Shown: one piece after another, positions 15,725-53,444 of the stretch | Position numbering within the stretch: the first letter of the stretch is position 1 | Layout: each line of letters starts with the position of its first letter | The notes under the pieces: model-generated | Told to the model about the DNA's origin: nothing | The model's input: the letters and a program-made list of their open reading frames with translations, nothing else | Databases searched by the model: none | Made by a program: the position numbers and the translations under genes | Origin: Acidimicrobiia bacterium | GTDB taxonomy: Bacteria > Actinomycetota > Acidimicrobiia > Acidimicrobiales > JANYDT01 | NCBI GenBank assembly: GCA_031418775.1 | Contig: JANOJN010000170.1 | Span: 34,977 to 98,976 of the forward strand | Length of the DNA stretch: 64,000 bases | Direction of reading: 5' to 3'

Positions 15725-15764
15725 GCGAGCCCAGAGAGGGCCGCGGTCACGGGCGGCGTGGCGG

Positions 15765-36044: not shown

Positions 36045-36046
36045 CA

Positions 36047-36090
<44 letters not shown>

Positions 36091-36098
36091 CTGGCCAC

Positions 36099-37838: not shown

Positions 37839-37887
37839 GCCGCCAACGCTAATGGCGCCCGCCCGAAATCCATGCCCGGTTTCACGC

Positions 37888-37957
37888 TGGGAGAGAGGTT
37901 GCCCCCGTATATGGGGGCAGAACACCTCCGAACGGCGCTCGGAGGCGTTCTGCCGCA
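37888..37957 (+). repeat. Dispersed structured intergenic repeat, copy 3 (70-bp core)
   Basis: TGGGAGAGAGGTTGCCCCCGTATATGGGGGCAGAACACCTCC...GGAGGCGTTCTGCCGCA. Confidence 0.93.
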
Positions 37958-37985
37958 CGTTCGTGACCGTCGTTCGGCGAGGTGG

Positions 37986-38110
37986 TCTGTGGACATATCT
38001 GTGGACATAGTGTCGTTTCGGTGGACAAGTCCCGATGTGCGGTTCGGAGCGAGCGCCGATTTCCGGGCGTTCGCGACGGCAGACGCCGCCTCTGGCGGTT
38101 CTTTTCCACA
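37986..38110. promoter_or_regulatory. DnaA-box-like cluster in the proS-lipase intergenic region
   Basis: TGTGGACAT x2 (12-bp tandem TCTGTGGACATA), GGTGGACAA 38020-38028, TTTTCCACA 38102-38110. Confidence 0.55.
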
Positions 38111-38257
38111 GCAGCGCACAACGTGGCTTCCTTGGTGAACGCGCGTTCAGAACTGATTGAAAGATCAATGATCAAACCCGACAACCACCTCCGGGCGAGC
38201 CCGGTCGGTGAACATCGACAAGACCGGATGACGTCGACCCGGCCGTAACCTCGGAGC

Positions 38258-39445
38258 ATGGTCAGCTTCTCGTCCCGTCGCCGCCTTGCGTTCGCGACGG
38301 CGGTTGCCACGCTGACGACGCTTGCCCTGACCGGGCCGTCCCCGACCGTCGCCCGTGCGGCGACCCGGGCCCAGTCGTTGAGCATTCCTGACCCCGCTCC
38401 CGACGTAGCCCCGGGCACGCTGCTCGGGTCGGTGCCGATCGCCGGCGGCGGACCACTCGGCGCCAAGGCGTACCGCGTCGTCTACGCATCGCGGAGCATC
38501 TCCGGTGTGCCGATCTCTGTCACCGGCTTCGCGTATGTGCCGCCAGGGCCGGCCCCGAGGGGCGGTTGGCCGGTGCTCTCGTATGCACACGGAACGGGTG
38601 GACTCGCCGATCGCTGTGCCCCGTCACGTAAGCCGGGCGCCGCCGAACAGTTCATCGGTCTGTCGTTCGTCGGCCTCGGCATGGCCGTCGTGGCGACGGA
38701 CTACGAGGGACTGGGCACACCCGGTCGCCATCCGTACATCGTCGGGGAGAGCGAAGGCCGGGGCGTGCTCGACATCGTCCGAGCCGCCCGCCAACTGCCG
38801 TCGGAGTCGCTAAGCGCGCGTACCTTGATCTGGGGCCACTCGCAGGGCGGCCACGCCGCGCTGTTCGCGGGTCAGTTGGCCCCGACCTGGGCGCCCGATC
38901 TGACGTTGCTCGGTGTCGTGGCAGGGGCACCGCCGTCGCAACTGACCACCGTCGCCGACTCGATCTCGACGTCGCCGTACCGCGGGTACCTGTTCATGGT
39001 CGCGGCCGGACTCGCCGCGGCGAACGCGTCGCTCAACCTTAACGACGTCCTGACAGAAAAGGGCCAACAGCTCCTTCCGGTGGTCGACACGGGTTGCAAC
39101 ACCGAGGTGTTCAAGGCGTTCTCCGCCGATCCGCTCGACACCCTCGTCAAGCGCGACGGGTTCCGTTCCGGGCCATGGGCTGCGGCACTCCAGGCGAACG
39201 AACCCGGCAATGTGCGCATCCACGCTCCTGTTCTCCTCGTCCACGGCGATCGCGATGAGCAGATTCCGGTGGCGACTTCGGCCAAGTTGCTGTCGCGGAT
39301 GTGTGCCGCGAAGACACTCACGCGCCGCGTCGTCTACCCGGGCCAGGACCACACCGGTGCGGCCATCGTCTCGCTCTTCGATGTGATCTCGTTCGCCAGG
39401 GATCGACTCGTTGGGAAGGCGGCGAAGACCAGCTGCAGAAGATGA
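38258..39445 (+). CDS. Secretory lipase (LIP family alpha/beta hydrolase)
   Basis: RRR-containing signal peptide, YAHGTGGLADRCAPS, ATDYEGLG, GHSQGG nucleophile, HGDRD, YPGQDH. Confidence 0.88.
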   Translation: MVSFSSRRRLAFATAVATLTTLALTGPSPTVARAATRAQSLSIPDPAPDVAPGTLLGSVPIAGGGPLGAKAYRVVYASRSISGVPISVTGFAYVPPGPAPRGGWPVLSYAHGTGGLADRCAPSRKPGAAEQFIGLSFVGLGMAVVATDYEGLGTPGRHPYIVGESEGRGVLDIVRAARQLPSESLSARTLIWGHSQGGHAALFAGQLAPTWAPDLTLLGVVAGAPPSQLTTVADSISTSPYRGYLFMVAAGLAAANASLNLNDVLTEKGQQLLPVVDTGCNTEVFKAFSADPLDTLVKRDGFRSGPWAAALQANEPGNVRIHAPVLLVHGDRDEQIPVATSAKLLSRMCAAKTLTRRVVYPGQDHTGAAIVSLFDVISFARDRLVGKAAKTSCRR

Positions 39446-39514
39446 GGTGGCAATTGACGCGACGAAATGCGAGTATTTACTCAGGTTCTGTTGCCGACTC
39501 CCGAAAGGTCCATC

Positions 39515-39709
39515 ATGCGAATCGTCATTGACGCGGAGAAATGTCAGGGACACAACCGCTGTTACGCGCTTGCCCCCGAGCTCGTCGATGTCGATGATCT
39601 CGGGATGGCCCAGGTCGTCAACGGCGGCATCGTGCCCGCCGGGTCCGAGGACAAGGCCAACCTCCTGGTGGCCAACTGTCCGGAGTACGCGATCTCCGTC
39701 GTCGAGTAA
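39515..39709 (+). CDS. [3Fe-4S]-type ferredoxin with CxxHxxC motif
   Basis: KCQGHNRCYALAPE...ANCPEYAI; AAAGG RBS; adjacent to a P450. Confidence 0.92.
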   Translation: MRIVIDAEKCQGHNRCYALAPELVDVDDLGMAQVVNGGIVPAGSEDKANLLVANCPEYAISVVE

Positions 39710-39769
39710 TTCCGCCCGATTCACCTGTCCCGACCTGGCCCTGACCCGACGAGAACAAGCGAGAACCAG

Positions 39770-40990
39770 ATGACCGACACCCGCGTACGGACCGCTCCCC
39801 CGGTCATCGATTGGGCGACCGACTTCGACCACACCGACCCGGTATGGGTCGACAATCCGTTCCCCATCTGGGACGACCTGCGCAAGCGTTGTCCCGTCGC
39901 CCACAGCGACCGCTTCAACGGTGTGTATCTTCCGACCCGGGCCGAGGACATTCACGCAATCGCCTACGACACCGACCATTTCACGTCACGAGCTGTCGTC
40001 GTGTCGACCAATGTGCCCGAAGCCGTTGCGCCGATCGGTGGTGCCCCGCCCATCACCAGCGATCCGCCGTTCCACCAGCACGCCCGCAAGATTCTACTCC
40101 CCGCGTTCGGCCCGAAGGTGATCGAGGCCCTGCGTCCCCGCGTCGTCGAGCTGTGCCACAAGCTGATCGACGACATGGAAGGACGCGACGTCGTCGACGG
40201 TGCCGCGGATTACGCCCAGAACATTCCGCCCGCGGTGATCGCCCACATGCTGGGGCTCCCCATGGAGGACGGCGACATCTTCCGGACGTTCATCCACAAC
40301 ACGCTCGGCAACGTCGACGCGCCGCCGGAGGAACGACACGCCGCCTTCCAGAAGCTCGACCACTACCTCGACGGACATCTGCACGATCACCTCGAGAACC
40401 CGCGCGACGACCTCATCACGTTCCTGCAGAATGCCGAGATCTTCGGCAACAAGCTCTCGTTCGAACACGTGCGTGGCACGATCGCGTTGCTGATGATCGC
40501 CGGCATCGACACCACGTGGTCGGCCATCGGGGCATCGCTGTTCCACCTGGCCTCGACGGACTCCGACCGGTCCCGGCTGCGCAACGAGCCCCAACTCCTG
40601 CCGACTGCGGTGGAGGAGTTCCTCCGGGCCTACGCGCCGGTCACCATGGCCCGCGTCGTCAAGGAAGATGTGGAGATCAGCGGGACAGTGCTGAAGGAAG
40701 GCGAATGGTGCCTGCTGCCCTTCCCGGCGGCGAACCGTGACCCGGAGGCCTTCGTCGACGCCGATCAGTTCGTGATCGACCGCGCCGAGAACCGCCATGC
40801 TGCGTTCGGGCTCGGCATCCACCGGTGCCTCGGATCGAACCTCGCCCGCCTCGAGCTGTCGGTCGGGGTGCAGGTGTGGATGGAGCGTTTCCCCGACTTC
40901 ATCCTCGAGGATCCGTCTGCGGTGACGTGGGCACCCGGCCAGGTACGCGGTCCGCGCATCCTGCCGATCCGCGTCCTCGAACGCGCCTGA
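39770..40990 (+). CDS. Cytochrome P450 (CYP194-like)
   Basis: DPPFH, IAGIDTT I-helix, EEFLR (ExxR), FGLGIHRCLG heme Cys; DWATDFDHTDP N-terminus. Confidence 0.95.
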   Translation: MTDTRVRTAPPVIDWATDFDHTDPVWVDNPFPIWDDLRKRCPVAHSDRFNGVYLPTRAEDIHAIAYDTDHFTSRAVVVSTNVPEAVAPIGGAPPITSDPPFHQHARKILLPAFGPKVIEALRPRVVELCHKLIDDMEGRDVVDGAADYAQNIPPAVIAHMLGLPMEDGDIFRTFIHNTLGNVDAPPEERHAAFQKLDHYLDGHLHDHLENPRDDLITFLQNAEIFGNKLSFEHVRGTIALLMIAGIDTTWSAIGASLFHLASTDSDRSRLRNEPQLLPTAVEEFLRAYAPVTMARVVKEDVEISGTVLKEGEWCLLPFPAANRDPEAFVDADQFVIDRAENRHAAFGLGIHRCLGSNLARLELSVGVQVWMERFPDFILEDPSAVTWAPGQVRGPRILPIRVLERA

Positions 40991-41071
40991 TCCCCGCCAG
41001 GCGAGCCCGCTCTCGCAACCGCGATATCTGGCTCTAGGGTTTTGGGCCCTAGCGAAGGGGTGCGCGTTTCC

Positions 41072-41749
41072 GTGGCCGGTCAAGAAAAGTGGCAACGTCA
41101 GTTCATGCGGTTCGGCGCGATCGTCGACCGGCTGAGTCGACCGTTCATGAGCGTCGAACTGGACCACCGTGACAGCGTTCCGCCCGAACCGATGCTGATG
41201 GCGGCGAATCATCGGAGCTTGGCCGACGTGTTCGTGGCGTTGATCGCCTGCTACCGCCTCAATCGGCCGACGCGCTTCATCGTCGCCCGGGTGTTCTTCA
41301 AACGTCCGGTGTTCGGCACCGTGTTGCGCTCGATCGGCTGCATCGAAGGGGGACGAAAGAGCGGCGCGAGCGCAGTGGCGATTGCTGCCATCGCCGGCGG
41401 ACACTCGTGTGCAATCATGCCGGAGGGCGAGATCAAGGCCATGGAGCCCGGCCACATCCTCGGGCCACTGCTGCCGGGCGTCGCCGAGATCTGGGAGCAG
41501 TCGCAGTGCCCGTTCGTCGCCGTCGGCGTCACCGGCGCCGGCGACGTGTGGAAGAAGGACCGCTGGCTTCCGCGTATTGCGCTTCGTCGGCGGAACCGTC
41601 CGCTCGTGCATGTCCGCGTTGCCGACCCGGTGTTCCCAGGTGGCCAGCCGTGCTCGCTCGAACGGGTGGAGCGGATCATGGAGGCAAACTGCGTCCAGAG
41701 CTTCCACGATCATCGGGAAGGGGCCGCCGAGCTTCGCGCCGGGAGATGA
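41072..41749 (+). CDS. Lysophospholipid/PlsC family acyltransferase
   Basis: ANHRSLAD (HxxxxD), RFIVARVFF, IMPEG motifs; start uncertain (ORF track 41042). Confidence 0.82.
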   Translation: MAGQEKWQRQFMRFGAIVDRLSRPFMSVELDHRDSVPPEPMLMAANHRSLADVFVALIACYRLNRPTRFIVARVFFKRPVFGTVLRSIGCIEGGRKSGASAVAIAAIAGGHSCAIMPEGEIKAMEPGHILGPLLPGVAEIWEQSQCPFVAVGVTGAGDVWKKDRWLPRIALRRRNRPLVHVRVADPVFPGGQPCSLERVERIMEANCVQSFHDHREGAAELRAGR

Positions 41750-41926
41750 CCGGCCGTCGCCCGGAATTGCAGTCCGAAAAAAATCCGGGAAGGACTTCCG
41801 AACCACACGGAGCTTGATGATCTCCCATGGGCGAAGCGCCAGTCGCGCGGTTTCCCGGATGTGTAACGATGAGCTCACAGCTCGCTGATGAGCATGCTGC
41901 GAAGTGAGTATCTGGAGGCAGGGTCG

Positions 41927-43288
41927 ATGGGAACCAACAGGGTGCCGGCGACGGCGCGCATCTGCATCGTGGGCGCTGGCCCGGCCGGGCTGGCAACCGC
42001 TCATCGCCTGCACCAGGAGGGGTTCGTCAACGTCACCGTCCTCGAGAAGCTCCCCCGCGTGGGCGGCCTGTGCCTGACCTACGAGTTCGAGGGCAAGGCA
42101 TTCGACCTCGGTGCCAACTACGTGACCGCGTCGTACACGCGGATCCGCAAGATGGCCAAGAAGGTACGCGCCGAGATGTACGTCGAGGCCGACGCGAGCT
42201 TCTGGAACTCGAAGGACCAGACGTTCCAGTCGATCCTGACGACCGCCAAGGGCAGCAACTCCGCGTTCGGTTTCGGATGGGCGTGCCTTCGATACCTCTG
42301 GATCCGTTGGCGCCTCGGCAAGGAGCTCCCCGCAAGCGGCTTCGCCCGCACGCACGAACGACCCGACCTTCTGGTGTCGTTCGACGAGTGGCTCGACCAC
42401 CATCGACTGGGTGCGCTGAAGACGCTGTTCGAGATTCCGATCACGCTCATGGGCTACGGCACCTTGCGGGAGATCGGAGCCCCGTACGCCCTCACCTACA
42501 TGCGGGTGGGCACGGTGATCGACCTGATGATCTATGGCTCGATGCCGTTCCACCGGTGGCCACGCCGGTTCGTGAACGGCTTCCAACGGTTCTGGTCGCG
42601 GGTCGCCGAACCCTTGGACGTACGCACGGGCGTCACCATCGAACGGATCGACCGCTCCCCCGACAGTGTGACCGTGCGGGCCAGCTTCCCGGTGGAGGTG
42701 GACGGCAACGTGCTCTACCGCGACGAGGACCTCGAGTACGACTACCTCGTCCTGTGCTGCCCATTGCAGCCCGAGGTCACCTCTGCGTTCCTCACGCTCA
42801 CCGACGACGAGACTCGCCTGTTCCAGAAGATCAGGCTCTTCCCGTTCTTCATCACGACGTGGCGCATGGAACAGCACAAGAAGATCCACACTCGGTTGGT
42901 CAACACCGTCCCGATTCCCGAGCGATCAACCGGCGCACCCACGATCATCACCCAGCAGTTCGAGGACAACCCGTTGGTCACCTTCTACTCGCCGGTAACC
43001 GACCCGGACCGCAGGTTCGATCCGCAGATCAAGCAGGGCATCGACGCATTGGCATCGGCGGTCGGCATCGAGCTGCCCGCCGAGCCCGAGACGTGGAACA
43101 ACTTCCCCTACTTTCCGCACGTCACCGTGCAGGACATCGCTGACGGCTGGTACCGCGACCTGGAAGCCATGCAGGGCGCCAACCGCACGTTCTACAACGG
43201 CGGCGTGATGGCATTCGAGTTGATCGAACCGATCGTCGAGTACTCCGACGAGCTCGTCCGCGTTCACTTCCTCGGCGGCCGGCCATGA
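41927..43288 (+). CDS. FAD-dependent oxidoreductase resembling polyenoic fatty acid isomerase (PAI), copy A
   Basis: IVGAGPAG, LEK..RVGGLC, FDLGA, PITLMGYGTL.EI.APYAL.Y, YFPHV..GWY..LEAMQG..RTFY.G..MAF; GGAGG RBS before ATG 41927. Confidence 0.8.
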   Translation: MGTNRVPATARICIVGAGPAGLATAHRLHQEGFVNVTVLEKLPRVGGLCLTYEFEGKAFDLGANYVTASYTRIRKMAKKVRAEMYVEADASFWNSKDQTFQSILTTAKGSNSAFGFGWACLRYLWIRWRLGKELPASGFARTHERPDLLVSFDEWLDHHRLGALKTLFEIPITLMGYGTLREIGAPYALTYMRVGTVIDLMIYGSMPFHRWPRRFVNGFQRFWSRVAEPLDVRTGVTIERIDRSPDSVTVRASFPVEVDGNVLYRDEDLEYDYLVLCCPLQPEVTSAFLTLTDDETRLFQKIRLFPFFITTWRMEQHKKIHTRLVNTVPIPERSTGAPTIITQQFEDNPLVTFYSPVTDPDRRFDPQIKQGIDALASAVGIELPAEPETWNNFPYFPHVTVQDIADGWYRDLEAMQGANRTFYNGGVMAFELIEPIVEYSDELVRVHFLGGRP

Positions 43289-44751
43289 CCGACGACACCA
43301 CCCGCGCCGGCTTGCACGCCGGCTTCGCCGACCTCTTCGAGGAGTCCGATACCGAACTCGAGGTGCAGGGCACGATCCCCACGTGGGTCTGCGGCGCGTT
43401 GGTCCGCAACGGCCCGGCCCAGTGGAACATGCCCGAGTCCGGGCGGCTCAACCACTGGCTCGACGGGCTCGCCATGCTGCACCGCTTCGCCATCAGCGAC
43501 GGCAAGGTGCACTACCGCAACCGGTGGTTGCAGAGCCGGAACCGCGTGTCGGTCGATGCCACCGGCCGAAACACCTACGCCCAGTTCGACACCGACCCGA
43601 AGCGTTCGTTGTGGCAGAAGATCGCGACCACGGTCGACTTCCCACTCCAGTTCGGGAACAACGACTTGATCACCGTCGCCAGCTTCGACAATGAGTGGGT
43701 AGCGGTCGGCGAGACACCGACCCAACTGTCGATCGACATCGACACACTGGCGACCAAGGGTCCGTTCGAGTTCAAGGATCGGATGTTCACCATCTGGACG
43801 TGCAGCCACATGCTCGCCGACCCGGCATCGAAGCGGGTGTACAGCTTCAGCACCATGGGCGTGCCGTTCTTCGGCCGCTACCACCTGTGGTACGTACAGG
43901 GAGACTCGCACCGGCGCACCCGGTTCGCCACGGTGAAGGACCGTCGGCCGTCGTGGATGCACGCCTTCGGGCTCAGCGAGCACTACGCGGTGCTCACCGC
44001 TTTTCCGTTCCGGTGCCGCACGTGGCAGCTGTTCTTCAACGCGCTCATCGGCAAGCCGTTCATCCAGACGTTCAAGTGGCACGACGAGGAACCGACGAAG
44101 GGCTACGTCATCGAACGCAGCAGCGGCCGAGTGGTCCGCCAGTTCGAACTGCCGCCACTGTTCGCCTTCCACTTCGCGAACACGTGGGAGGAGAATGGTG
44201 AGGTCGTGTTCGACATCGCCGCGTATGCCGACGCCTCGGTGATCGAAGCAGGCCGGCTGCACAACGTGTTCGGCCCTGACGGTGGCCACTTCCCGGACTC
44301 CACCCTCCAACGGTTCCGCGTGCCGCTGGCCGGCGGCGCGGTCGGGCGAACGGTGCTCTCCGATGCCCCGATCGAGATGCCGCGCATCAACGACGGCAAG
44401 AGCATGCGCTCGTATCGCTACGCCTACGGCTTCAGCTACGACGCGCCAGGCCACTTCTACAACCAACTGGTGAAGATCGACACGCAGCGAACGACCGCGA
44501 ACGACACGCGATGGGGTCCACCCGGTTCGTTCCCCAGCGAGCCGACGTTCATCCCGCGGCCAGGCGCCACGGCCGAGGACGACGGCGTGTTGCTCAGTGT
44601 GGTGCTCGACGTCAGCGGCGACGAGCCGACGTCGTGGCTAGTGGTGCTCGATGCCACGACGTTCACCGAACTCGGCAGAGCCCGCGTTCCACACCACATC
44701 CCATTCGGTTTGCACGGCACGTTCGTGTCCGCGGAAAGAGGCACCCTGTGA
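43285..44751 (+). CDS. Carotenoid cleavage oxygenase family protein (RPE65/BCO-like)
   Basis: GALVRNGP, HWLDGLAMLHRF, four Fe-ligand His (CSH, WMH, AFH, GLHG), EMPRIN, PSEPTFIPRPGATAEDDG; ATGA overlap. Confidence 0.93.
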   Translation: MTDDTTRAGLHAGFADLFEESDTELEVQGTIPTWVCGALVRNGPAQWNMPESGRLNHWLDGLAMLHRFAISDGKVHYRNRWLQSRNRVSVDATGRNTYAQFDTDPKRSLWQKIATTVDFPLQFGNNDLITVASFDNEWVAVGETPTQLSIDIDTLATKGPFEFKDRMFTIWTCSHMLADPASKRVYSFSTMGVPFFGRYHLWYVQGDSHRRTRFATVKDRRPSWMHAFGLSEHYAVLTAFPFRCRTWQLFFNALIGKPFIQTFKWHDEEPTKGYVIERSSGRVVRQFELPPLFAFHFANTWEENGEVVFDIAAYADASVIEAGRLHNVFGPDGGHFPDSTLQRFRVPLAGGAVGRTVLSDAPIEMPRINDGKSMRSYRYAYGFSYDAPGHFYNQLVKIDTQRTTANDTRWGPPGSFPSEPTFIPRPGATAEDDGVLLSVVLDVSGDEPTSWLVVLDATTFTELGRARVPHHIPFGLHGTFVSAERGTL

Positions 44752-46118
44752 GCACACCCACCGTCTGCGTCGTCGGTGCCGGCCCCGCCGGCCTCGCCAT
44801 GGCGAGGCTGCTCACCAAGGCGGGATACGACGTCACGGTGCTGGAACAACTCGATCGCGCAGGCGGCATGTGCCACTCCGTCGAGTTCCGTGGCGAATGG
44901 TTCGACATCGGCGCGAACTACGTCACCAAGGACTACCGCGAAGTCCGCGCGCTGGCGAAGGAGTTCGGCCTCTCGTTCGTCAGCGACAAGGCGTTCCAGA
45001 ACCAGACCTCGCTCGACACCGCCACCGGCACGACGCAGTCGGTCCAGAAGACCATCCAGGCCGGGCATGGCATGCTCGCATTCCTCGCCGCCTCGGTGCG
45101 CTACTTCGGGGCGCAGTGGGAGTACCGCAAGCTGGTCGCCGCGCCCGGTTACGTCGGCGTCGCCGCCCACAAGGAGTTGATGACCGAGTTCGGGCCCTGG
45201 CTGCGCGCCAACCGCATGGCGCCACTCCAGAAGCTGTTCATGATCCCGATCACGGCGATGGGCTTCGGCACCTTGGACGAAATCCCCGCGCCGCATGCGC
45301 TGCGCTACCTCAACGCTCGCCGGTTCCTCTCCATGCTGATGACGGGAATGAAGATCCCGCAACGCTGGCCGAAGCGGTTCGCCAAGGGGTTCGGCAGCGC
45401 GTGGAGCACCGTGGCCGCCCGGTACGCGGTGGAGTACGAGACCGTGCCGACACGAGTGGTGCGCACGGCCGACGGTGTCAGTGTCCACACCGCTCAAATG
45501 GGGGTCGACCAGGCGCCGCGCGTGTTCGACCATCTCGTGGTGTCGTGCCCGCCCAGCACCGCGATGTCGTTCCTCGACGCCACGGAGACCGAGCAGCAGC
45601 TGTTCGGCGGCGACACCATCCGTTTCAACCGCTACTCGGTCACCACCGCACGAGTGACCGAGTTCCCGTGGTGGGTTGTCAACACCATGCGCGCCACACC
45701 CGGTGACAACGGCGCGTTTCCCCCACCCAACGGCAGCCCCTACATCTTCGGCAAGCAGTGGAAGGACAGCGAGCTCAACCTCTACTACGCACCGCTCGCC
45801 CCGATGCTGGGTGACCCCGAACGCGAGGCGCAGATCCGCACGGTGTCGGAGCAGTCGCTGCCGGCGGGCAGCCCATCCGTCTTCCACGAGTTCGTCCACT
45901 ACGCGAACTGGCCGCAGTACTTCCCTCGCGTCAGCGTCGACGACATGACGGGCTTTCACGGCACCATCGGCTGGTACGACCAGGTCGAGGCGATCCAGGG
46001 CCAGAACCACACCTACTGGTGCCACGGTGTCCTCAGCTTCGAGCTGGTGGAACTGGTCATGCGCTACGCCCGCCATCTCACCGAGCAGCACTTCCCCCAG
46101 CACGGGGGGCAGCCTTGA
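44748..46118 (+). CDS. FAD-dependent oxidoreductase resembling PAI, copy B
   Basis: VVGAGPAG, RAGGMCHS, FDIGANYV, PITAMGFGTLDEIPAPHALRYL, YFPRV..GWYDQVEAIQG; GTGA overlap with the oxygenase stop. Confidence 0.8.
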   Translation: MSTPTVCVVGAGPAGLAMARLLTKAGYDVTVLEQLDRAGGMCHSVEFRGEWFDIGANYVTKDYREVRALAKEFGLSFVSDKAFQNQTSLDTATGTTQSVQKTIQAGHGMLAFLAASVRYFGAQWEYRKLVAAPGYVGVAAHKELMTEFGPWLRANRMAPLQKLFMIPITAMGFGTLDEIPAPHALRYLNARRFLSMLMTGMKIPQRWPKRFAKGFGSAWSTVAARYAVEYETVPTRVVRTADGVSVHTAQMGVDQAPRVFDHLVVSCPPSTAMSFLDATETEQQLFGGDTIRFNRYSVTTARVTEFPWWVVNTMRATPGDNGAFPPPNGSPYIFGKQWKDSELNLYYAPLAPMLGDPEREAQIRTVSEQSLPAGSPSVFHEFVHYANWPQYFPRVSVDDMTGFHGTIGWYDQVEAIQGQNHTYWCHGVLSFELVELVMRYARHLTEQHFPQHGGQP

Positions 46119-49100
46119 ACTGCAGCGCCTGCCACGCGCCCGTCGACACGAACGACGCGTTCTGCCGCTCCTGCGGCGCGCGGGTGACGAGCGAACCCAC
46201 CGCACCGGTTGCTCCCGTCCCAGGTGCCGAACGCCGCCAGTTGACTGCCATGTTCTATGACCTGGTGGGCTCGACGGCGATGTCCATGACCGCCGACCCG
46301 GAGGATCTGCAGATCGCGATGCAGGCGTACCAGCATCGCTGCCTCGAAGTGGTCCGCAACTTCGGCGGCACGCCCACCACCACGATGGGTGATGGCGGGC
46401 TCGTCTACTTCGGCTACCCCATCGCCAACGAGGACGACCCGCTGCGCGCCGTCTCAGCCGGGCTGGCGCTCCTCGAAGAGCTTCCGGAACTGAACCGGCA
46501 CATCCACGAGATCCTGCCGCACTTCGGACACGACCTGCAGATGCGAATCGGGGTGCACACCGGCGCCGTGGTCCTCGGGGCTGTCGGATCCGACCTCAAC
46601 GATGGCCGCCTCGCGGTCGGCCAGGCGCTGAACCAGGCCGCACGCATCGAGTCGGCGGCGCCGGTGAACGGCCTCGCCGTCAGTGACGTGACGGCTCGCC
46701 GCGTGCAGGGCGTGGTCGATCTGCGCTCGCTGGGGCAGCGCGAGCTGAAGGGCCTCGACCACCCGGTCGAGGTGTTCGAGGTGCGGGGACTCCGTCCCGG
46801 GCAGGGTCGCTTCACCGTCGGGACCCATCCACTCAGCCCACTGGTCGGCCGCGACACCCTGCTCGCCGAGCTCGCGCAGCACTGGCACGCTGCTGCGGCC
46901 GGTGACGGACGAACGGTGGTGTTGCGCGGCGAGGCCGGTATCGGGAAGAGCCGCGCCGCCTACTCGCTGCGCCAGCAGCTGAACGACACCCGACATGCGT
47001 GGTTCGCCATTCATGGTTCGGCCGTGATGAGCCACACGGCGTTTCATCCGGTCGTCGACGCGATCTACGCCATCCTGAACATCAGTCCCGGGCCCGAGGC
47101 ACTCCCGGTCCTGACCGCTTCGCTGGCCGCGGTCGGCATCACCGACGCAGCAACGATCGAGTTGTTGAGCGTGTTCCTCGAACTGACGACGCCTGCCGAT
47201 ACATCGATGAGCGCCGACGAACGGCGCCGCCGCACTCTCGACGCGATCTGTACGTGGTGGATCGCCATTGCGGACACCATCCCCACCGTGATGGTGGCGG
47301 AAGACCTTCACTGGTACGACCCGTCGACGATGGAGCTACTCGATCTGGTCACCAGTCGGGCTCAGGGCCATCCACTGCTGCTGATCGGCACCACCCGCCC
47401 CTCGGAGCAAGCCTGGCCCGACAGCGTCCGCATCATCGACCTCGAACCACTGACGCTCATCGAGGTGAGCCAGCTGATCGAGCAACTCGCCGCCGGCACG
47501 GAACTCACCGAATTGCAGCGTGCGCAGATCGCACTGCGCAGCGACGGTGTTCCGCTGTTCGCAGAAGAGCTGATGCACGGCATCGCCGACGGCAAGATCA
47601 CAGGTGCCGAGATCCCCGACACGCTCGTCGACCTGCTGACTGCACGGCTCGACCGTCTCGGGACGGCGAAGGAGGTCGTGCAGGTCGCGTCACTGCTCGG
47701 CCGCCAGTTCTCGGCCGAGTTGCTCGCTGCGGTGCTCCCCGACGTGCCGCACCTCGACGACGTGCTCGGCGAACTGATCGACGGCCGATTCGTGGCCCGC
47801 CGCGGTGTCGGCGACCGATCCATCTACCTGTTCCGGCATGCGTTGCTACAGGACGCCGCGCAGGAGTCCATGCTGCGCCGACGCCGTCAGGCCGAGCACG
47901 TCCGAATCGCCCAGGTGTTGCAGCGCGACTTCGCCGACGCGCCGGAAGGTCGCCACGAAGTCGTCGGTCACCACCTCGAGCAGGCGGGTGAGGCGCGCGC
48001 TGCCGTCGAGCAGTACCTCGAAGCCGCACGTTCGGCCCGCCGGCGCGCTGCCATCACGGAGGCCACCGCCCGTTACCAGCACTCCATCGCACTCGTCCAG
48101 GCCCTGCCCGAGACCACCGATCGACACCGTCTCGAGCTGGTCCTGCAGCTGGAGCTGGCCGCAGTGCTGGGTCTCGAGCTGGGCTTCATGCCCGCACCGG
48201 TGGGCAACGCGTACATCCGTACCGTCGAGTTGTGCGAGCGTTCGGGCGAGACCGGCGACCGCTACGTCGAAGCCCAGCATGGCCTGGCGCAGCATCATCT
48301 CAGCGCCGGTCGCTTCGACAAGGCGGCCGAGGTGGCCACCGTCTTGTTGAACCACGCCATAGAACACGGCGACGAGCGCGCCGAGCTGCTGGCACATCGA
48401 GCGCTCTGCCAGATACGGTTCTGGACTGGCCGCTACACAGAGGTGCTGGCGCACGCAGAACGGGTCCTTGTCCTCTACCGGCCCGACGACCCAGCGGACG
48501 TTCGTTACTCGATGGGCATTGAGAGCGCCGTGGTCGCGATGACCTTCGGCGCTGTAGGTCATTGGGCGCTGGGCCGGCCGCACACCGCAGTCGAGTGGGC
48601 CGAACGCTGCATCGCCCGTGCAATGGCCGAGCCCGACGTGTACCAACAGGCATATGCGCAGGCCTACTTCAGCATGCTCGGCATCATGCTCAACGACCCC
48701 GAGCGCGTCGAGCAGTGGGCGCTCGGGGCGAAGGCGATCGCCGAGCGGCACGGCTTCCGGCCCCTCGAAGGGCTGTCGCGCTACACGCTCGGTTGGGCGA
48801 TGGCCGAGCGTGGCCATCCACAGGCATTCGAGATGGTGAAGACCGGCATCGGCATCCTCGCCGGAGCCGGAGCCATTGGCGCACCGGGCTGCATGGCCGT
48901 CGTGGCAGAGATGTACGCGAAGAAGGGCGAGCACGTCGAGGCCACCGGGTACGTCGCATTCGGCGAGTCGATGGCGGAGCCGACCGGACAGCACTTCTAC
49001 ACGGTCGAGCTCCATCGCTCGGCAGCGCTCGTCCACCTCGGCCTCGCCGAAGCGACAACTGATCCCGAGGCGACGGCGGCTGAGCTGGCAGCGGCGGAGC

Positions 49101-49345
49101 AGCGCGCGAAGCAGGCGATCGAACTGGCGAGACAACAGGCATCGCCGAGTCTGGAGCTGAGGGCCATCCAGCCGATGATCGAACTGCTTTTCCGGCGCGG
49201 CGAGCCCGATGCGGCTCGAGGGCTGCTGCAGGAAGTGGTCGACAAGTTCCCGGCCGACAGCTCTGGCATCGACCTCGACCGAGCACGGGAAGCGCTGCAG
49301 GGGGCTGCCGAGCTGCGTCCGCAGCTGCGGTACACGATGGCCTGA
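46115..49345 (+). CDS. Zinc ribbon-class III nucleotide cyclase-STAND (AAA) ATPase-TPR protein
   Basis: CxxC..CxxC, ERRQLTAMFYDLVGST, MGDG, RIGVHTG, NQAARIE, GEAGIGKS, EDLHW, GVPLFAEE, FRHALLQD, helical C-terminal repeats; TTGA overlap. Confidence 0.92.
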   Translation: MNCSACHAPVDTNDAFCRSCGARVTSEPTAPVAPVPGAERRQLTAMFYDLVGSTAMSMTADPEDLQIAMQAYQHRCLEVVRNFGGTPTTTMGDGGLVYFGYPIANEDDPLRAVSAGLALLEELPELNRHIHEILPHFGHDLQMRIGVHTGAVVLGAVGSDLNDGRLAVGQALNQAARIESAAPVNGLAVSDVTARRVQGVVDLRSLGQRELKGLDHPVEVFEVRGLRPGQGRFTVGTHPLSPLVGRDTLLAELAQHWHAAAAGDGRTVVLRGEAGIGKSRAAYSLRQQLNDTRHAWFAIHGSAVMSHTAFHPVVDAIYAILNISPGPEALPVLTASLAAVGITDAATIELLSVFLELTTPADTSMSADERRRRTLDAICTWWIAIADTIPTVMVAEDLHWYDPSTMELLDLVTSRAQGHPLLLIGTTRPSEQAWPDSVRIIDLEPLTLIEVSQLIEQLAAGTELTELQRAQIALRSDGVPLFAEELMHGIADGKITGAEIPDTLVDLLTARLDRLGTAKEVVQVASLLGRQFSAELLAAVLPDVPHLDDVLGELIDGRFVARRGVGDRSIYLFRHALLQDAAQESMLRRRRQAEHVRIAQVLQRDFADAPEGRHEVVGHHLEQAGEARAAVEQYLEAARSARRRAAITEATARYQHSIALVQALPETTDRHRLELVLQLELAAVLGLELGFMPAPVGNAYIRTVELCERSGETGDRYVEAQHGLAQHHLSAGRFDKAAEVATVLLNHAIEHGDERAELLAHRALCQIRFWTGRYTEVLAHAERVLVLYRPDDPADVRYSMGIESAVVAMTFGAVGHWALGRPHTAVEWAERCIARAMAEPDVYQQAYAQAYFSMLGIMLNDPERVEQWALGAKAIAERHGFRPLEGLSRYTLGWAMAERGHPQAFEMVKTGIGILAGAGAIGAPGCMAVVAEMYAKKGEHVEATGYVAFGESMAEPTGQHFYTVELHRSAALVHLGLAEATTDPEATAAELAAAEQRAKQAIELARQQASPSLELRAIQPMIELLFRRGEPDAARGLLQEVVDKFPADSSGIDLDRAREALQGAAELRPQLRYTMA

Positions 49346-49365
49346 GCAGTTGTTGCGCAGTCCGG

Positions 49366-50511
49366 CTAGGGAAGCTGATCGTTCGTGGGCCGGGGTGTGT
49401 CGGGCCACACCCAGCGGCGCAGCGCCGTGTCGCAGATGACGTAGCCCCAGCGAACGAGGTCGCGCCGAACCTGTTCGGGCAGCCCCGTCAACCGCGTTGC
49501 CACGTGCGCCGGATAGCCGGGGGGCACGTGCGCGAACGGCAGCGGATCGGGCAGCCCGTAGTCGGCCACGTCGGACGAAATGCTCCAGTAGGCGCCCGCG
49601 CGTTGCCCGTCGAGGAAGCTCTCGATCAGCTGCACCTTGCGCAATGCCCGCACCTGCGAGTTCATCACGCCGGCGACGCGCACGAACTGGCGCAACCAAT
49701 CGTTCGGTTGCTTTGCCTCCGGCTTGAAGGACTCGCCGGCATCGGACACGAGCACGGTGTCGCAGTTCGACCACACCGTCTGCAGCCCGAGGTTGTCGTA
49801 GACGCCACCGTCGGAGAGCACAAACTCTTTCAGGAACGGTTCCGGGTTCGGGTGCTGCGGCACGTGAGTGCGGTCGTACGCTCCGGTTGGCGTCGTGCGG
49901 TGGGGCGAGAAGAACGGCGGGAACGAGCTGGAGGCGGCGACAGCCACTGCGAGTGAAGTGGTGGGCTGACTCCAGATGCCGATGCTGTAGTCGCCCATGT
50001 AGGGCCTCGAGAACCGGAACTGCTTGCCCGTCTGCAGGTTCGTGGAATCGATGACGAACCGTGGCCCCGCGTCGTCGGCGGGCAGGTCCTGCAAGGTCGC
50101 ACCATCGAAGAGGTGGCGATCGTACGCGTCGGCCAGGCACCCGCTGATGGACTTGCCCGGCAGCAACCCCTTCCAGAAGCACTTCGCATCGATTCCCACT
50201 CCGCCGAACTCGAACACACGAGACACCACCAGCGCATCCAGGTTCGTCGCCCGATCATGCTCGTCCCACTGCAGCTCGGCCCAGCGCAGGCCGAGTACGG
50301 CGGCCGTGATCGAGCCGCCGGACACGCTGGAGACACGGCGCAACCACCGGAGCCGACCGAGCTGGTTCAGACGGATCAGGGCACCCAGGTGGAACAGCAT
50401 CGCCCGGTAGCCACCGCCCGACAGGCACAGGCCCAGCCCGACGGGAGGGCCGGCGTCGAACGGCCAGGGAGCGTGCACCATCGGAGTCGGCTTCGGCGCC
50501 TGCACGGTCAT
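49366..50511 (-). CDS. Patatin-like phospholipase
   Basis: LSGGGYRAMLFHLG, SSVSGGS nucleophile, ASSSFPPFF, DGGVYDN; GAGG RBS before ATG 50511. Confidence 0.9.
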   Translation of the reverse strand: MTVQAPKPTPMVHAPWPFDAGPPVGLGLCLSGGGYRAMLFHLGALIRLNQLGRLRWLRRVSSVSGGSITAAVLGLRWAELQWDEHDRATNLDALVVSRVFEFGGVGIDAKCFWKGLLPGKSISGCLADAYDRHLFDGATLQDLPADDAGPRFVIDSTNLQTGKQFRFSRPYMGDYSIGIWSQPTTSLAVAVAASSSFPPFFSPHRTTPTGAYDRTHVPQHPNPEPFLKEFVLSDGGVYDNLGLQTVWSNCDTVLVSDAGESFKPEAKQPNDWLRQFVRVAGVMNSQVRALRKVQLIESFLDGQRAGAYWSISSDVADYGLPDPLPFAHVPPGYPAHVATRLTGLPEQVRRDLVRWGYVICDTALRRWVWPDTPRPTNDQLP

Positions 50512-50638
50512 CGACACCTCGTGCCCATAGGTTGCTGCATCGACGCGACCGAACCTAGTGTCCCGAATCACAAATCCGCTGCCGAGGCCGGGAGGCACCA
50601 TCTCCTCGGTGGGGTTCAGGGACGTTCAGCTAGGTGAC

Positions 50639-50794
50639 TGGTGTGTCGCCCAGTTGAGTTGGGCGGATTGCGAGTCAGGTTCGTCGAGGGCAACAGGAGG
50701 CACCGCTAGCCAGCACCCTGCGAACGGAACGACGAGGACGCCGCCATCGGCGAAGCTGGCCGCAAGGCGTCCCAGCGAAATGGGCGACACACCA
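50639..50794. mobile_element. MITE-like element with 14-bp terminal inverted repeats
   Basis: TGGTGTGTCGCCCA (50639-50652) and TGGGCGACACACCA (50781-50794) are perfect inverted repeats; CTAG near both ends; no convincing ORF inside. Confidence 0.55.
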
Positions 50795-50868
50795 CTAGGC
50801 ACTCCCCCCTGGCGAGCGATCAGCGCACGGCGGCACACCGTTAGGAGTGCGATGTTCGCAGGGCTGGG

Positions 50869-51528
50869 CTACCAGCCGTCGAGGATGGCGCGGCCGCCCG
50901 AGGTGCCGATCCGCGTGGCGCCGGCTTCGATCATGGCTCTCGCTGTTGCCGCGTCACGGATACCGCCGGAGGCCTTGATGCCGGTGTCTTCGCCTACGGT
51001 GTCGGCCATGAGGCGCACGGCGGCCACGGTCGCGCCGCCGGAGGGATGAAACCCCGTCGAGGTCTTCACGAAGTCGGCTCCAGCGGATCTCGCCACACGG
51101 CACGCCTCGACGATCTCGGCGTCGGTCAGGACCCCCGTCTCCAGGATGACCTTGAGCAGGGCGTTGGGGACAGCGGCGGCGACGTCGGCGATGTCGGCTT
51201 CGAGTCCGTCCCAGTCGCCAGATTTGATGAGTCCGAGGTTCGCGACCATGTCGATCTCGCTCGCGCCAGCGGCGACGGCGAGCGACGCCTCCATGGCCTT
51301 GATGCGGCTGTCGACGGCACCGCTGGGGAATCCGATGACCGTGCACACGACGATGCCGCCGTCGACGGCGTTGGCGGCAAGTTCGACATGGCACGGGCTC
51401 ACGCAGACGGCACCGACACCTAGCTCGTTCGCCTCCACGCAGAGCGCCACAACCTCGTCGGGCGTGGCCTCGGGACGAAGGAGGGTGAGGTCGAGCATGC
51501 GGGCGACATCGGCGCGGGACAGGTCCAT
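50869..51528 (-). CDS. deoC: Deoxyribose-phosphate aldolase
   Basis: LDLTLLRPEAT, VIGFPSG, EIDMV, LKVILET, DFVKTSTGF, IKASGGIR, RIGTS. Confidence 0.97.
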   Translation of the reverse strand: MDLSRADVARMLDLTLLRPEATPDEVVALCVEANELGVGAVCVSPCHVELAANAVDGGIVVCTVIGFPSGAVDSRIKAMEASLAVAAGASEIDMVANLGLIKSGDWDGLEADIADVAAAVPNALLKVILETGVLTDAEIVEACRVARSAGADFVKTSTGFHPSGGATVAAVRLMADTVGEDTGIKASGGIRDAATARAMIEAGATRIGTSGGRAILDGW

Positions 51529-51712
51529 GTCCCCACGTTCTCACGGCGGCCCCGGTCTCCGTTCCCGATCCACCGCCGCCGAGTTCATCGCCGGCAAGGC
51601 GGAAACTGCCCGGGATTCGTCGCCCAAACCGGTTTTGCGGGCGACGGAGACCGCATTGGCGGGCGATGCGGCCCGTGTGCAGAAGCGGCGCGGAGTTTGG
51701 AAGGATGCCGGG

Positions 51713-53422
51713 GTGACTGATTCGACTTCCGCGGGTCCTGCAGCAGTCCGTCTCGCGGCGCAGCGCTGGCTCGCCTTGGATCCCGACCCGGTCACCCGAG
51801 CGGAGACGCAGGCGCTTCTCGACGCGGCGGCGACCGGCGCCGCGAAGGCGTTGGAAGACCTCGCCAACCGCTTCACCGGACGTCTCCAGTTCGGCACGGC
51901 CGGGATTCGCGCTGCCATTGGCGCCGGGCCGCAGCGGATGAACCGGTTGGTCGTGCGGCAAACAGCGGCTGGCGTGGCGGCGGACCTACTGGCAACGGTG
52001 CCCGACGCGGCGGCGAGGGGCGTAGTCGTCGGCGGCGATGCCCGTCACGGGTCGAAGGAGTTCGTGGAAGACGTGGCCGCGGTCCTCGCTGCGGCGGGCG
52101 TCGCGTCGATGCGTTTCCCCGACCCGACGCCTACCCCGTTGGTGGCGTTCGCCACGAAGCACCTCAACGTCGCCGCCGGCATCCAGGTGACGGCGAGCCA
52201 CAACCCGCCGGCCGACAACGGTATGAAGGTCTACTGGGGTGACGGTGCCCAGATCGTGCCGCCCATGGATGCGCGCATCGCCGCGGCGATCGACGTCGTC
52301 GCGACCGGTCCGATCGCCCTTGCCGGTCCGGACAGCCCGTTGGCCCAGTTCGTCGACCCGACGCTCGTCGATCAGTACGTGGAAGGGGTGCACGCGCTCG
52401 ATCCGCACACCGCCTCGGCGTCAGAGCGAGCGGCGCTGAAGATCGTCATAACCCCGATGCACGGTGTGGGCGGCGTTCTGCTCGTTCGCATCCTCGGCGA
52501 AGCGGGGTTCACCCAGGTCGTGCCCGTGGCCGAACAGTTCGCACCCGACCCGGACTTCCCGACGGTGTCGTTTCCCAACCCCGAGGAGCCCGGCGCGCTC
52601 GACCTGGCGTTCGCCACGGCCCGGCGCGTCGGCGCCGACATCATCATCGCCAACGACCCGGACGCCGACCGGTGTGCCCTGGCCGTGCTCGATCCCTCGG
52701 CCGAAGGTGGATGGCGCATGCTGCGGGGTGATGAGGTCGGCTGGGTTCTCGCCGACCACCTCCTGGGGGTTCCGTCCGAGGACCCGCGCCCGACCCTGCT
52801 CGTCACGACCTTGGTTTCGTCGTCCCTGCTTCGCGCCATGGCGGCGCGTCGGGGTGCGGCCTACGTCGAAACGCTCACCGGGTTCAAGTGGCTCGCCCGG
52901 GCGGCAATGGATCGCCCCGACCACCGACTGGTCCTTGCGTATGAGGAGGCGCTCGGCTACTGCGTCGGCGATCTCGTGGCCGACAAAGACGGCTTCAGCG
53001 CTGCCCTCGTTGCGGCCGACCTTGCCGCGCGACGCAAGGCCGACGGATCGTCGCTGCTCGGTGCTCTCGCCGACATCGAGTCGACCTACGGGCGTTACGA
53101 CACCTCACAGTGGTCGCTGCGCTTCGACGGACCCGCCGCGGCCGACGACATGGCGGCGCTCATGGTTCGGGCCCGGGCCGCACACCCGTCGGAGATCGCC
53201 GGATGCACCGTGGTGGAGGAGTGGGACTACCTCACCAGCGACCCGCCGGCCGACGTCGTTGTCTTCTCCCTCGGCGAGATCGGGCGTATCACGGTGCGCC
53301 CGAGCGGGACCGAGCCGAAGTGCAAGGTCTACTTCGAGGTTGTCTCCCATGGAGGCGCGGCCGCCGTCACGGTCGACGAACTCCGGCTGGCCATGGCTCT
53401 GCTGTTGGGTGTCCCGGCGTGA
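51713..53422 (+). CDS. Phospho-sugar mutase (PGM/PMM, PGM2-like; possible phosphopentomutase role)
   Basis: LQFGTAGIR, TASHNP phosphoserine loop, DPDADR, GFKW, YEEALGY, RPSGTEPK; start GTG 51713. Confidence 0.93.
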   Translation: MTDSTSAGPAAVRLAAQRWLALDPDPVTRAETQALLDAAATGAAKALEDLANRFTGRLQFGTAGIRAAIGAGPQRMNRLVVRQTAAGVAADLLATVPDAAARGVVVGGDARHGSKEFVEDVAAVLAAAGVASMRFPDPTPTPLVAFATKHLNVAAGIQVTASHNPPADNGMKVYWGDGAQIVPPMDARIAAAIDVVATGPIALAGPDSPLAQFVDPTLVDQYVEGVHALDPHTASASERAALKIVITPMHGVGGVLLVRILGEAGFTQVVPVAEQFAPDPDFPTVSFPNPEEPGALDLAFATARRVGADIIIANDPDADRCALAVLDPSAEGGWRMLRGDEVGWVLADHLLGVPSEDPRPTLLVTTLVSSSLLRAMAARRGAAYVETLTGFKWLARAAMDRPDHRLVLAYEEALGYCVGDLVADKDGFSAALVAADLAARRKADGSSLLGALADIESTYGRYDTSQWSLRFDGPAAADDMAALMVRARAAHPSEIAGCTVVEEWDYLTSDPPADVVVFSLGEIGRITVRPSGTEPKCKVYFEVVSHGGAAAVTVDELRLAMALLLGVPA

Positions 53423-53444
53423 TCCGTCCGACGAACCGGGGGCA

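Follow-up and report, generated by a model that had tools for sequence, protein, structure and literature searches.

Isomerase-like flavoproteins encoded with a carotenoid-dioxygenase-family enzyme and a STAND signalling protein on a five-gene island of an Acidimicrobiia bacterium

A 64,000-nt stretch of DNA from an Acidimicrobiia bacterium (contig JANOJN010000170.1, positions 34,977 to 98,976; hereafter the window, in whose coordinates all positions are given) contains an island of five genes at ~41763-50867. The genes encode two flavoproteins related to the polyenoic fatty acid isomerase (PAI) of Cutibacterium acnes, here termed PAI1 and PAI2, a member of the carotenoid cleavage dioxygenase (CCD) family, a signalling protein that combines a class III nucleotide cyclase domain with an AAA_16 STAND ATPase and TPR-like repeats, and a patatin-like phospholipase. 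PAI-like genes are recurrently paired with CCD genes and with STAND signalling proteins in several phyla, and some lineages encode PAI1 and the CCD as a single protein. The island quite possibly represents a self-contained, horizontally mobile module in which the processing of an unsaturated acyl-lipid chain is connected to the STAND signalling protein. In what follows, G codes denote genomes (G000 is the source of the window), L codes denote scanned loci, and P codes denote database protein clusters.

The flavoproteins and the oxygenase

Both flavoproteins are predicted members of the PAI-type fatty acid isomerase family. In a HMMER search of all solved structures, the C. acnes enzyme (2b9w) is matched by PAI1 with an E-value of 5.3e-32 (residues 9-448) and by PAI2 with an E-value of 3.5e-30 (residues 5-449), whereas the next-best solved matches of both proteins have E-values of ~1e-7 to 1e-9 and are for the most part limited to the N-terminal ~80 residues of the Rossmann fold. 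A comparison with other amine oxidases, which an earlier note on this DNA had proposed, places both proteins with PAI, over their full length and by a large E-value margin. The alignments to 2b9w contain the GxGxxG and acidic residue of the flavin adenine dinucleotide (FAD) binding site, as well as the GYG...A.Y.L.Y and YFPHV..GWY...E.MQG...T.Y motifs that the note had recognized in both sequences. Among 20 family members, the GxGxxG/acidic and YFPHV..GWY..E.MQG..T.Y columns are invariant or nearly so, and many of the family-invariant residues are the same in C. acnes PAI.

PAI1 and PAI2 are 35% identical to each other. PAI1 has orthologues of 60-98% identity in G006, G559 and L092-L095, while PAI2 belongs to a separate old clade with orthologues in L093, L094, L095, L152 and G559. 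A quick tree was built from 64 PAI stretches of at least 400 residues and 4 outgroup rows, leaving out shorter matches; the PAI1 orthologues fall within a clade of 18 rows, and for 11 of these a CCD is encoded in the same locus. None of the four operon proteins reaches the cut-off of any NCBIfam model, and a search of the ESM Atlas yielded nothing but generic 'FAD-dependent oxidoreductase' clusters. The flavoproteins thus share full-length homology, the FAD motif and the GYG and YFPHV blocks with the C. acnes enzyme, which we take to be the one characterized member of the family, but they are distant relatives of it without a curated family model. They also differ in their setting: C. acnes PAI is presumably a stand-alone enzyme, whereas here two old paralogues occur together, with coupling or fusion to a CCD and a link to signalling proteins.

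The CCD matches the Pfam RPE65 profile with 370.8 bits (cut-off 27) over positions 2-469 of 469, and its best solved relative is NdCCD of Nitrosotalea devanaterra (6vcf, E 2.8e-105). Its four histidines and three second-shell glutamates align with those of 6vcf. In all ten partner CCDs that were aligned, H175, H226, H296 and H477 are invariant. A second alignment shows these histidines, together with E143 and E419, to be invariant as well. The iron site is therefore predicted to be intact, in agreement with the earlier note, which had seen an intact four-histidine RPE65/BCO-type oxygenase. The available part of a study of NdCCD describes cleavage of apocarotenoids and an occluding residue, Val126, and reports a threonine at this site of a stilbenoid-cleaving CCD (PMC12051055). 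The window CCD has a hydrophobic isoleucine in place of Val126. It does not reach the NCBIfam equivalog models for CCDs (8'-apo-carotenoid 13,14-cleaving; lignostilbene dioxygenases), scoring 141.4, 113.5 and 72.7 bits against cut-offs of 675, 800 and 650. The best solved match, the conserved histidines and glutamates and the hydrophobic occluding position associate the protein with NdCCD and the animal-type CCD/RPE65 branch. In contrast to NdCCD, it is encoded between two flavoproteins, one of which is its fusion partner in several lineages, and in one carrier of a window-type CCD, G559, no carotenoid pathway was found.

The CCD superfamily also includes lignostilbene dioxygenases, and the CCD that accompanies PAI-like genes in L110 matches these with an E-value of ~5e-66. 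Moreover, DNA of the stretch is present in sediment or freshwater-sediment metagenome runs, which are possibly its source. The genes could thus be thought of as a catabolic operon for an exogenous alkene-bearing compound, aromatic (stilbenoid, lignin-derived) or other, with an adjacent STAND regulator. We regard this as very unlikely. The window CCD matches lignostilbene dioxygenases with an E-value of only 4e-20, compared to ~1e-105 for NdCCD and animal-type CCDs, and the isoleucine at the occluding site differs from the threonine given for the stilbenoid-cleaving enzyme in the accessible text of PMC12051055. The flavoproteins are PAI-like rather than similar to aromatic-amine or alcohol oxidases, and the island contains neither transporter genes nor downstream catabolic genes.

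Operon structure and island boundaries

The first four genes, at 41927-49345, lie on the plus strand, and consecutive pairs share 4-nt stop/start overlaps. The overlaps that the earlier note had listed were all found on direct reading of the sequence: ATGA at 43285-43288 (PAI1/CCD), GTGA at 44748-44751 (CCD/PAI2) and TTGA at 46115-46118 (PAI2/cyclase gene). They are more than a chance arrangement, since all three are kept in G559 and L093/L094 at protein identities of 50-87%. PAI1 starts with an ATG, eight bases after a GGAGG, and the GC content at third codon positions is 0.83-0.90 across all genes. The Pfam result (Table 1) bears out the order flavoprotein, oxygenase, flavoprotein and cyclase-STAND-TPR protein proposed in the note. 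The four coupled genes are real, but the span given there omits a fifth gene, which encodes the patatin and converges with the operon. A consensus scan of the 41763-41926 leader found no promoter, and promoter and terminator consensus scans gave no more matches than in shuffled sequences. The Rfam search returned a single sub-threshold chance match and nothing more, and no RNA sequencing run containing the stretch was listed.

The boundaries of the island were defined by DNA comparison of window positions 36000-53500 with five genomes of the same genus that lack the flavoproteins. In G002, G003 and G005, ~45-50 bp take the place of ~41763-50867, and the flanks are collinear; on the left, collinearity stops at ~41741-41763. 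G008 is similar at this site, with some extra DNA. Because congeners with collinear flanks miss exactly these genes, the unit that was gained or lost comprises the five genes for PAI1, the CCD, PAI2, the cyclase protein and the patatin. The flanking genes are housekeeping genes. Between the patatin and DeoC genes, the right edge of the island contains a 156-bp element resembling miniature inverted-repeat transposable elements (MITEs), of which copies are present in G002 (five), G003 and G005. The GC content of the island equals that of the genome; of 304 genome windows, 98% are less atypical than the island in tetranucleotide composition.

Table 1. Features of the island and domains of the encoded signalling protein
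Feature	Position	Strand	Basis
Left edge of island and 5' leader of operon, with GGAGG at 41914-41918	41763..41926	+	End of collinearity with congeners; sequence
PAI1, PAI-like FAD flavoprotein, 453 aa	41927..43288	+	Pfam Amino_oxidase + NAD_binding_8; best solved relative 2b9w
CCD-family non-haem iron dioxygenase, 488 aa	43285..44751	+	Pfam RPE65; best solved relative 6vcf
PAI2, PAI-like FAD flavoprotein, 456 aa	44748..46118	+	Pfam Amino_oxidase + NAD_binding_8; 2b9w match
Signalling protein, Zn-ribbon/cyclase/AAA_16/TPR, 1076 aa	46115..49345	+	Pfam
Zn-ribbon	46118-46183	+	Pfam
Class III cyclase (Guanylate_cyc)	46235-46768	+	Pfam, 55.5 bits, cut-off 21.9
AAA_16 STAND ATPase	46838-47386	+	Pfam; Walker A GEAGIGKS in translation
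C-terminal TPR-like region	~48032-49342	+	Pfam
Patatin-like phospholipase, 411 aa, convergent with operon	49366..50601	-	Pfam Patatin; GGGYR, SVSGG and DGG motifs
MITE-like element, ~156 bp, 34-nt terminal inverted repeats	50639..50794		Inverted-repeat search; copies in congeners

The upstream genes for the LIP lipase, a P450 and a PlsC-type acyltransferase were considered as further parts of the unit and rejected. They are collinear in the island-less congeners and are not found beside the module in G559 and L094. Two observations on this upstream region are recorded separately. A dispersed repeat of ~72 bp (~37885-37958) is situated between the ProRS and LIP lipase genes, and dozens of copies of ~90% identity are present per same-genus genome. 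Paralogues of the window P450 (46-47% identity) occur in G000 on C228 (7076-10979) and C126 (23176-27602), each a few kb from AAA_16 STAND paralogues, so that G000 may have P450-STAND as another recurring pair of an enzyme with a STAND protein.

Distribution, conserved order and fusions

The arrangement is rare. It is present in one of eight other genomes of the genus (G006), in none of 16 further genomes of the family, and in none of 16 genomes that represent the other families of its order. An even, phylum-wide sample of 400 genomes did not contain it at E <= 1e-40, and a sample of the class yielded one in 400 (G559). G559, a single-contig, 98%-complete genome from another family, has the same gene order, with identities of 61% for PAI1, 56% for the CCD, 57% for PAI2, and 59%, 49% and 48% for the cyclase, STAND and TPR parts of the signalling protein. 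The search for the four-gene order in other genomes that the earlier note had suggested thus finds it complete in G006, G559 and L094, the last also with the patatin gene. The metagenome contigs L092, L093 and L152 are partial, and L095 is without the cyclase gene. Beyond the loci with all three overlaps, single overlaps are kept in L092, L095 and L152. Neither a grouping of the flavoproteins with unrelated oxidases nor a restriction of the four-gene order to this window, which the note had named as evidence against its proposal, was found computationally. As a separate observation, the CCD of G006 (L009/L010) shares only 91% identity with that of the window, compared to 98% for PAI1 and the cyclase domain and 95% for PAI2.

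In L095, PAI1 and the CCD form one open reading frame (ORF) of 964 aa. Five database clusters, P0246-P0250 (952-956 aa), likewise combine PF01593 and PF03055, with identities of 57-63% to PAI1 and 51-56% to the CCD; one of them may be the protein of L095 itself. Tandem PAI-PAI fusions make up ten further clusters. The existence of these natural fusions argues that PAI1 and the CCD would work in contact and that two PAI modules would act together. A 1261-aa plus-strand ORF without a Pfam match upstream in L095 was discarded as a candidate gene, the region containing minus-strand patatin and nuclease-helicase genes instead. The latter gene (L095:4418-7786, minus strand) encodes a 1123-aa PD-(D/E)XK nuclease/RNase H-like/SF1 helicase protein, adjoins the patatin gene, and lies upstream of the fused PAI1-CCD gene.

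The wider family and its neighbourhoods

The PAI-like family is small, with 170 representatives at E <= 1e-30 among 1.84 billion. Its gene neighbourhoods were scanned with phmmer seeds in 83 sources, namely 79 metagenome loci, three genome loci and the window. An alignment trimmed to its last ~300 residues served to identify the metagenome loci, as the whole-length version was driven by the Rossmann fold (2 close relatives in 80 loci). PAI-like genes were identified in 82 of the 83 sources, CCD-family genes in 15, cyclase domains in 13, AAA_16 in 15, protein kinases in 16, patatins in 6 and CMAS-type methyltransferases in 4. When only loci with at least 3 kb on each side of the PAI gene are considered (n=24, window included), a CCD lies within 3 kb in 8 and a signalling protein in 12, but these counts are not independent, because several loci are near-duplicates.

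Gene orders and CCD subfamilies vary between PAI/CCD loci. In cyanobacteria (Nostoc L012, Halomicronema L013, G1066, L099 and L121), an operon encodes a kinase-AAA_16-GAF-cyclase protein of ~1800 aa, a divergent RPE65 protein (683-722 aa) and a PAI-like protein, and the same type of giant protein is found beside PAI and CCD in L096 and L106. The order in L110 and L112 is CCD, kinase-TPR protein, PAI, patatin, PAI. A PAI-like gene stands beside a cyclase-AAA_16(-TPR) gene in L126, L129 and L148, two PAI genes lie beside a gene for a kinase-WD40 protein in L111, and in L100 an LCAT-like lipase with TPR is encoded two genes upstream. Patatin genes adjoin PAI/CCD genes in L094, L095, L110, L112 and L142.

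Some features of these neighbourhoods deserve separate mention. The cyanobacterial 683-722-aa RPE65-family proteins (L099:5766-7814, L012:7871-9880, L013:7576-9741 and L121:7395-9473) have large insertions and match solved CCDs with a best E-value of 3.3e-7, but keep the four histidines; they appear to be an uncharacterized CCD branch. The available portion of a survey of cyanobacterial CCDs contains no gene-neighbourhood analysis (PMC3299332). In L113, L147, L153 and L162, a gene for a CMAS-type methyltransferase lies near the PAI-like gene on the opposite strand, divergently upstream in three of the four. A pairing of a flavoprotein with a CMAS methyltransferase resembles the synthesis of 10-methyl fatty acids.

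The signalling protein and the patatin

The cyclase domain retains both metal-binding aspartates as well as the asparagine, arginine and lysine of class III enzymes, as read from FYDLVGST, MGDGG, LNQAAR and LKG in the alignment. The protein aligns with positions 263-1263 of TIGR03903, the 'TOMM system kinase/cyclase fusion protein', with 362.8 bits (cut-off 705.75). It shares with this family the succession of cyclase, AAA_16 and helical repeats in one alignment. However, its score is below the cut-off, a Zn-ribbon takes the place of the kinase, which is absent, the match beginning only at profile position 263, and there is no helix-turn-helix output domain. No genes for TOMM (thiazole/oxazole-peptide) synthesis are among the Pfam matches of the island. 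In two proteins of the wider set with cyclase-AAA_16(-TPR) architecture encoded beside PAI-like genes (L126:5554-9786, minus strand; L148:2337-6746, plus strand), both metal-binding aspartates are lost, and these proteins are therefore likely pseudo-cyclases.

A functional tie between the enzymes and the signalling protein is likely, because the overlap with PAI2 is conserved and because AAA_16 proteins with varied outputs (cyclase, kinase) and sensors (TPR, GAF, WD40) recur beside PAI and CCD genes. That the cyclase-STAND-TPR gene is a mere neighbour of the three enzymes, with no functional tie to them, would fit with its absence from L095, where the three enzymes are present, and with multidomain cyclases being presumably common in Actinomycetota. 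We find this hardly credible, since the 4-nt overlap is kept in G559 and L094 at 48-75% identity, and since PAI/CCD genes in unrelated orders are also flanked by genes for other AAA_16 signalling proteins. With no more than 4 cyclase loci and 5 AAA_16 loci in G000, an abundance of paralogues does not account for the adjacency. The tie may run in either direction: the protein may sense a product of the enzymes, it may control them, or the whole may be a conflict-type system.

In a conflict or defence system, the TPR region of the STAND protein would sense an invader, the cyclase would signal, and the patatin together with the isomerases and the oxygenase would be the effector, acting by membrane damage or reactive aldehydes. 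The sporadic distribution (one in 24 in the family, 1/400 in the class sample, 0/400 in the phylum sample, 2/300 in cyanobacteria), the MITE-like element that borders the discrete island, the atypical tetranucleotide composition of the island, the kinase/STAND/WD40/TPR architecture of partner proteins and weak PycC-like matches would all be in line with this possibility, and the combination of a nucleotide cyclase with a patatin lipase in one mobile island recalls CBASS CapV and Pycsar. Nevertheless, we judge it distinctly improbable. No PADLOC system model fits: the cyclase domain alone matches PycC, weakly (best E 6e-13), the patatin and the CCD have no PADLOC match, and the flavoproteins have a weak N-terminal match to the 'C-3',4' desaturase' model. 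Pfam found no cyclic nucleotide-binding domain in the patatin or the enzymes, which sets the island apart from CBASS and Pycsar. Moreover, the flanking genes are housekeeping genes, and the conserved core consists of metabolic enzymes, which are retained, and even fused, where the patatin or the cyclase is missing.

The substrate

An acyl-lipid-derived substrate is, by a modest balance of the evidence, the probable one, while some other compound is unlikely and a carotenoid or apocarotenoid rather improbable. The sole characterized relative in the PAI family is a fatty-acid isomerase (2b9w). PAI-like domains of 31-33% identity are found in proteins with the architectures AMP-binding-PAI-acyl carrier protein (ACP)-PlsC acyltransferase (P0386), AMP-binding-PAI-ACP-esterase-thioesterase (P0407), catalase-like-PAI-ACP (P0374 and P0411) and 2xPAI-2xACP (P0352). 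Lipid-handling neighbours recur as well, namely patatin, LCAT-like lipase with TPR, PAP2 and CMAS. In G559, which carries the whole four-gene module, there are three fatty-acid desaturase-family genes, and a search for phytoene/squalene synthase (PF00494), which as a control was positive in 8 of 14 known genomes, found no match; nor was there a CrtI-family match at E <= 1e-15. In 82 loci checked, no homologues of crtB, full-length crtI or desaturases were found.

The known substrates of the CCD superfamily are carotenoids, apocarotenoids, retinoids and stilbenoids. The PAI-like enzymes might accordingly be polyene cis-trans isomerases or saturases around a CCD that cleaves carotenoids or apocarotenoids, with the STAND cyclase sensing the product. 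The best characterized relative of the CCD, at E 2.8e-105, is the apocarotenoid-cleaving NdCCD (as described in the available part of PMC12051055), and the hydrophobic isoleucine at the Val126 position agrees with this. In the source genome G000, moreover, crtI and crtB are located on contig C215, and C133 carries a rhodopsin gene (15276-15968). The absence of carotenoid and rhodopsin genes that the earlier note had pointed out holds within the window, but not for the genome. The pairing of an isomerase with a CCD is, in addition, familiar from the strigolactone and retinoid pathways. An apocarotenoid signal nonetheless seems rather improbable to us in view of the carotenoid searches in G559 and in the 82 loci, the fusion of PAI-like domains to fatty-acyl activation and carrier domains, and the distribution of rhodopsin, which all five island-less congeners have and which a search of G559 did not detect. 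As module and rhodopsin dissociate in both directions, a role of the module in retinal supply for rhodopsin was rejected. A Blh-type dioxygenase was not found in G000, but its absence is unproven, as the control matched nowhere. Two further observations concern carotenoid-related genes: the rhodopsin gene is found genus-wide, and G000 has a second CrtI-family gene above the family cut-off (C234:31881-33362, minus strand), with one in-frame TGA.

The preference for a lipid over a carotenoid, on the strength of the acyl fusions and G559, agrees with the interpretation in the earlier note, as do the identity of the PAI and CCD proteins and their co-occurrence; the patatin, the fusions and the association with kinase, GAF and STAND proteins had escaped it.

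Proposed pathway

For the acyl-lipid module that we prefer, we infer the chemical steps and the sensing step as follows. A membrane or storage lipid would be the source of a fatty acyl chain, released by the patatin lipase. PAI1 and PAI2 would then bring the double bonds of this chain into conjugation in a redox-neutral reaction, as the homologous C. acnes PAI does with linoleate. The CCD, in contact with PAI1, as the fusions suggest, would cleave a conjugated C=C bond to carbonyl products. The Zn-ribbon/cyclase/AAA_16/TPR protein would link this chemistry to a cyclic-nucleotide output, with the product or an intermediate most likely bound by its helical-repeat sensor.

A bolder version can be formulated, which we consider doubtful. 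The PAIs would make a conjugated triene from a methylene-interrupted polyunsaturated chain freed by the patatin, the CCD would cut the triene to an alkenal and an oxo-acid, and the CCD product would be the ligand of STAND cyclase/kinase receptors from Acidimicrobiia to cyanobacteria. This would amount to a lipoxygenase-independent bacterial oxylipin pathway with the first CCD acting on a fatty acid, and to a lipid-to-cyclic-nucleotide cascade encoded on a mobile island.

Several points weigh against an acyl-lipid pathway of either form. Polyunsaturated fatty acid production by the carriers is an assumption, and we know of no CCD-family enzyme that cleaves a fatty-acid-derived alkene. Arg88 of C. 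acnes PAI, which we take to be the carboxylate anchor for the free fatty acid substrate, aligns with alanine in PAI1 and glutamine in PAI2, in a gapped stretch of low alignment confidence, and the PAI-like family has conserved arginines that the C. acnes enzyme does not have. The closest characterized CCD, NdCCD, is described as acting on apocarotenoids (PMC12051055). Among the 24 assessable PAI loci, 11 have neither a CCD nor a signalling protein within 3 kb. In class III cyclases, a canonical base-specifying pair of Lys/Asp or Lys/Thr indicates ATP and Glu/Cys indicates GTP. The pair in the window protein is Thr/Leu rather than the canonical Lys/Asp, and the first position varies among orthologues (T, A or N), with leucine at the second, so that the product nucleotide is not predictable. 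Partner cyclases of types B and C have lysine with aspartate or threonine, and mycobacterial cyclases of the Rv0386 type presumably also have non-canonical residues at these positions. Finally, 20 kb of G559 were examined for the patatin with a negative result, and L095 is without the cyclase gene, so that neither gene is obligatory.

The pathway would have parallels in better known systems. As in the lipoxygenase/hydroperoxide-lyase route to oxylipins, aldehydes and oxo-acids would arise from polyunsaturated fatty acids released by a lipase, but through entirely different enzymes, a flavin isomerase and a CCD. No lipoxygenase match was obtained in G000, in a search whose control matched nowhere. 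In plants (D27/CCD7/CCD8/MAX1), insects (NinaB) and vertebrates (RPE65), double-bond isomerization and CCD cleavage likewise lead to a signal. These pathways use isomerases of other families and carotenoid substrates, and differ from the module in having neither a flavoprotein fusion nor a linked STAND cyclase. Our literature search, from which subscription journals were largely absent, found no description of an association of PAI-like proteins with CCDs and signalling proteins. The module thus appears to be undescribed, in keeping with the earlier note, whose author knew of no pathway with this arrangement.

The fused, coupled and repeatedly STAND-linked PAI/CCD genes of unrelated phyla provide an enzyme partnership that can be tested and candidates for a ligand and its receptor. 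With the fusions P0246-P0250 and the complete genome of the carrier G559, the question can be addressed directly. With a fatty acid as substrate, the module would represent a new reaction class for CCDs and a new route to aldehyde and oxo-acid oxylipins, and would give a first clue to the ligand of one group of large bacterial STAND proteins. With another polyene, the flavin isomerase and the CCD would still form a pair whose logic parallels that of the isomerases and CCDs in plant hormone pathways and animal vision.

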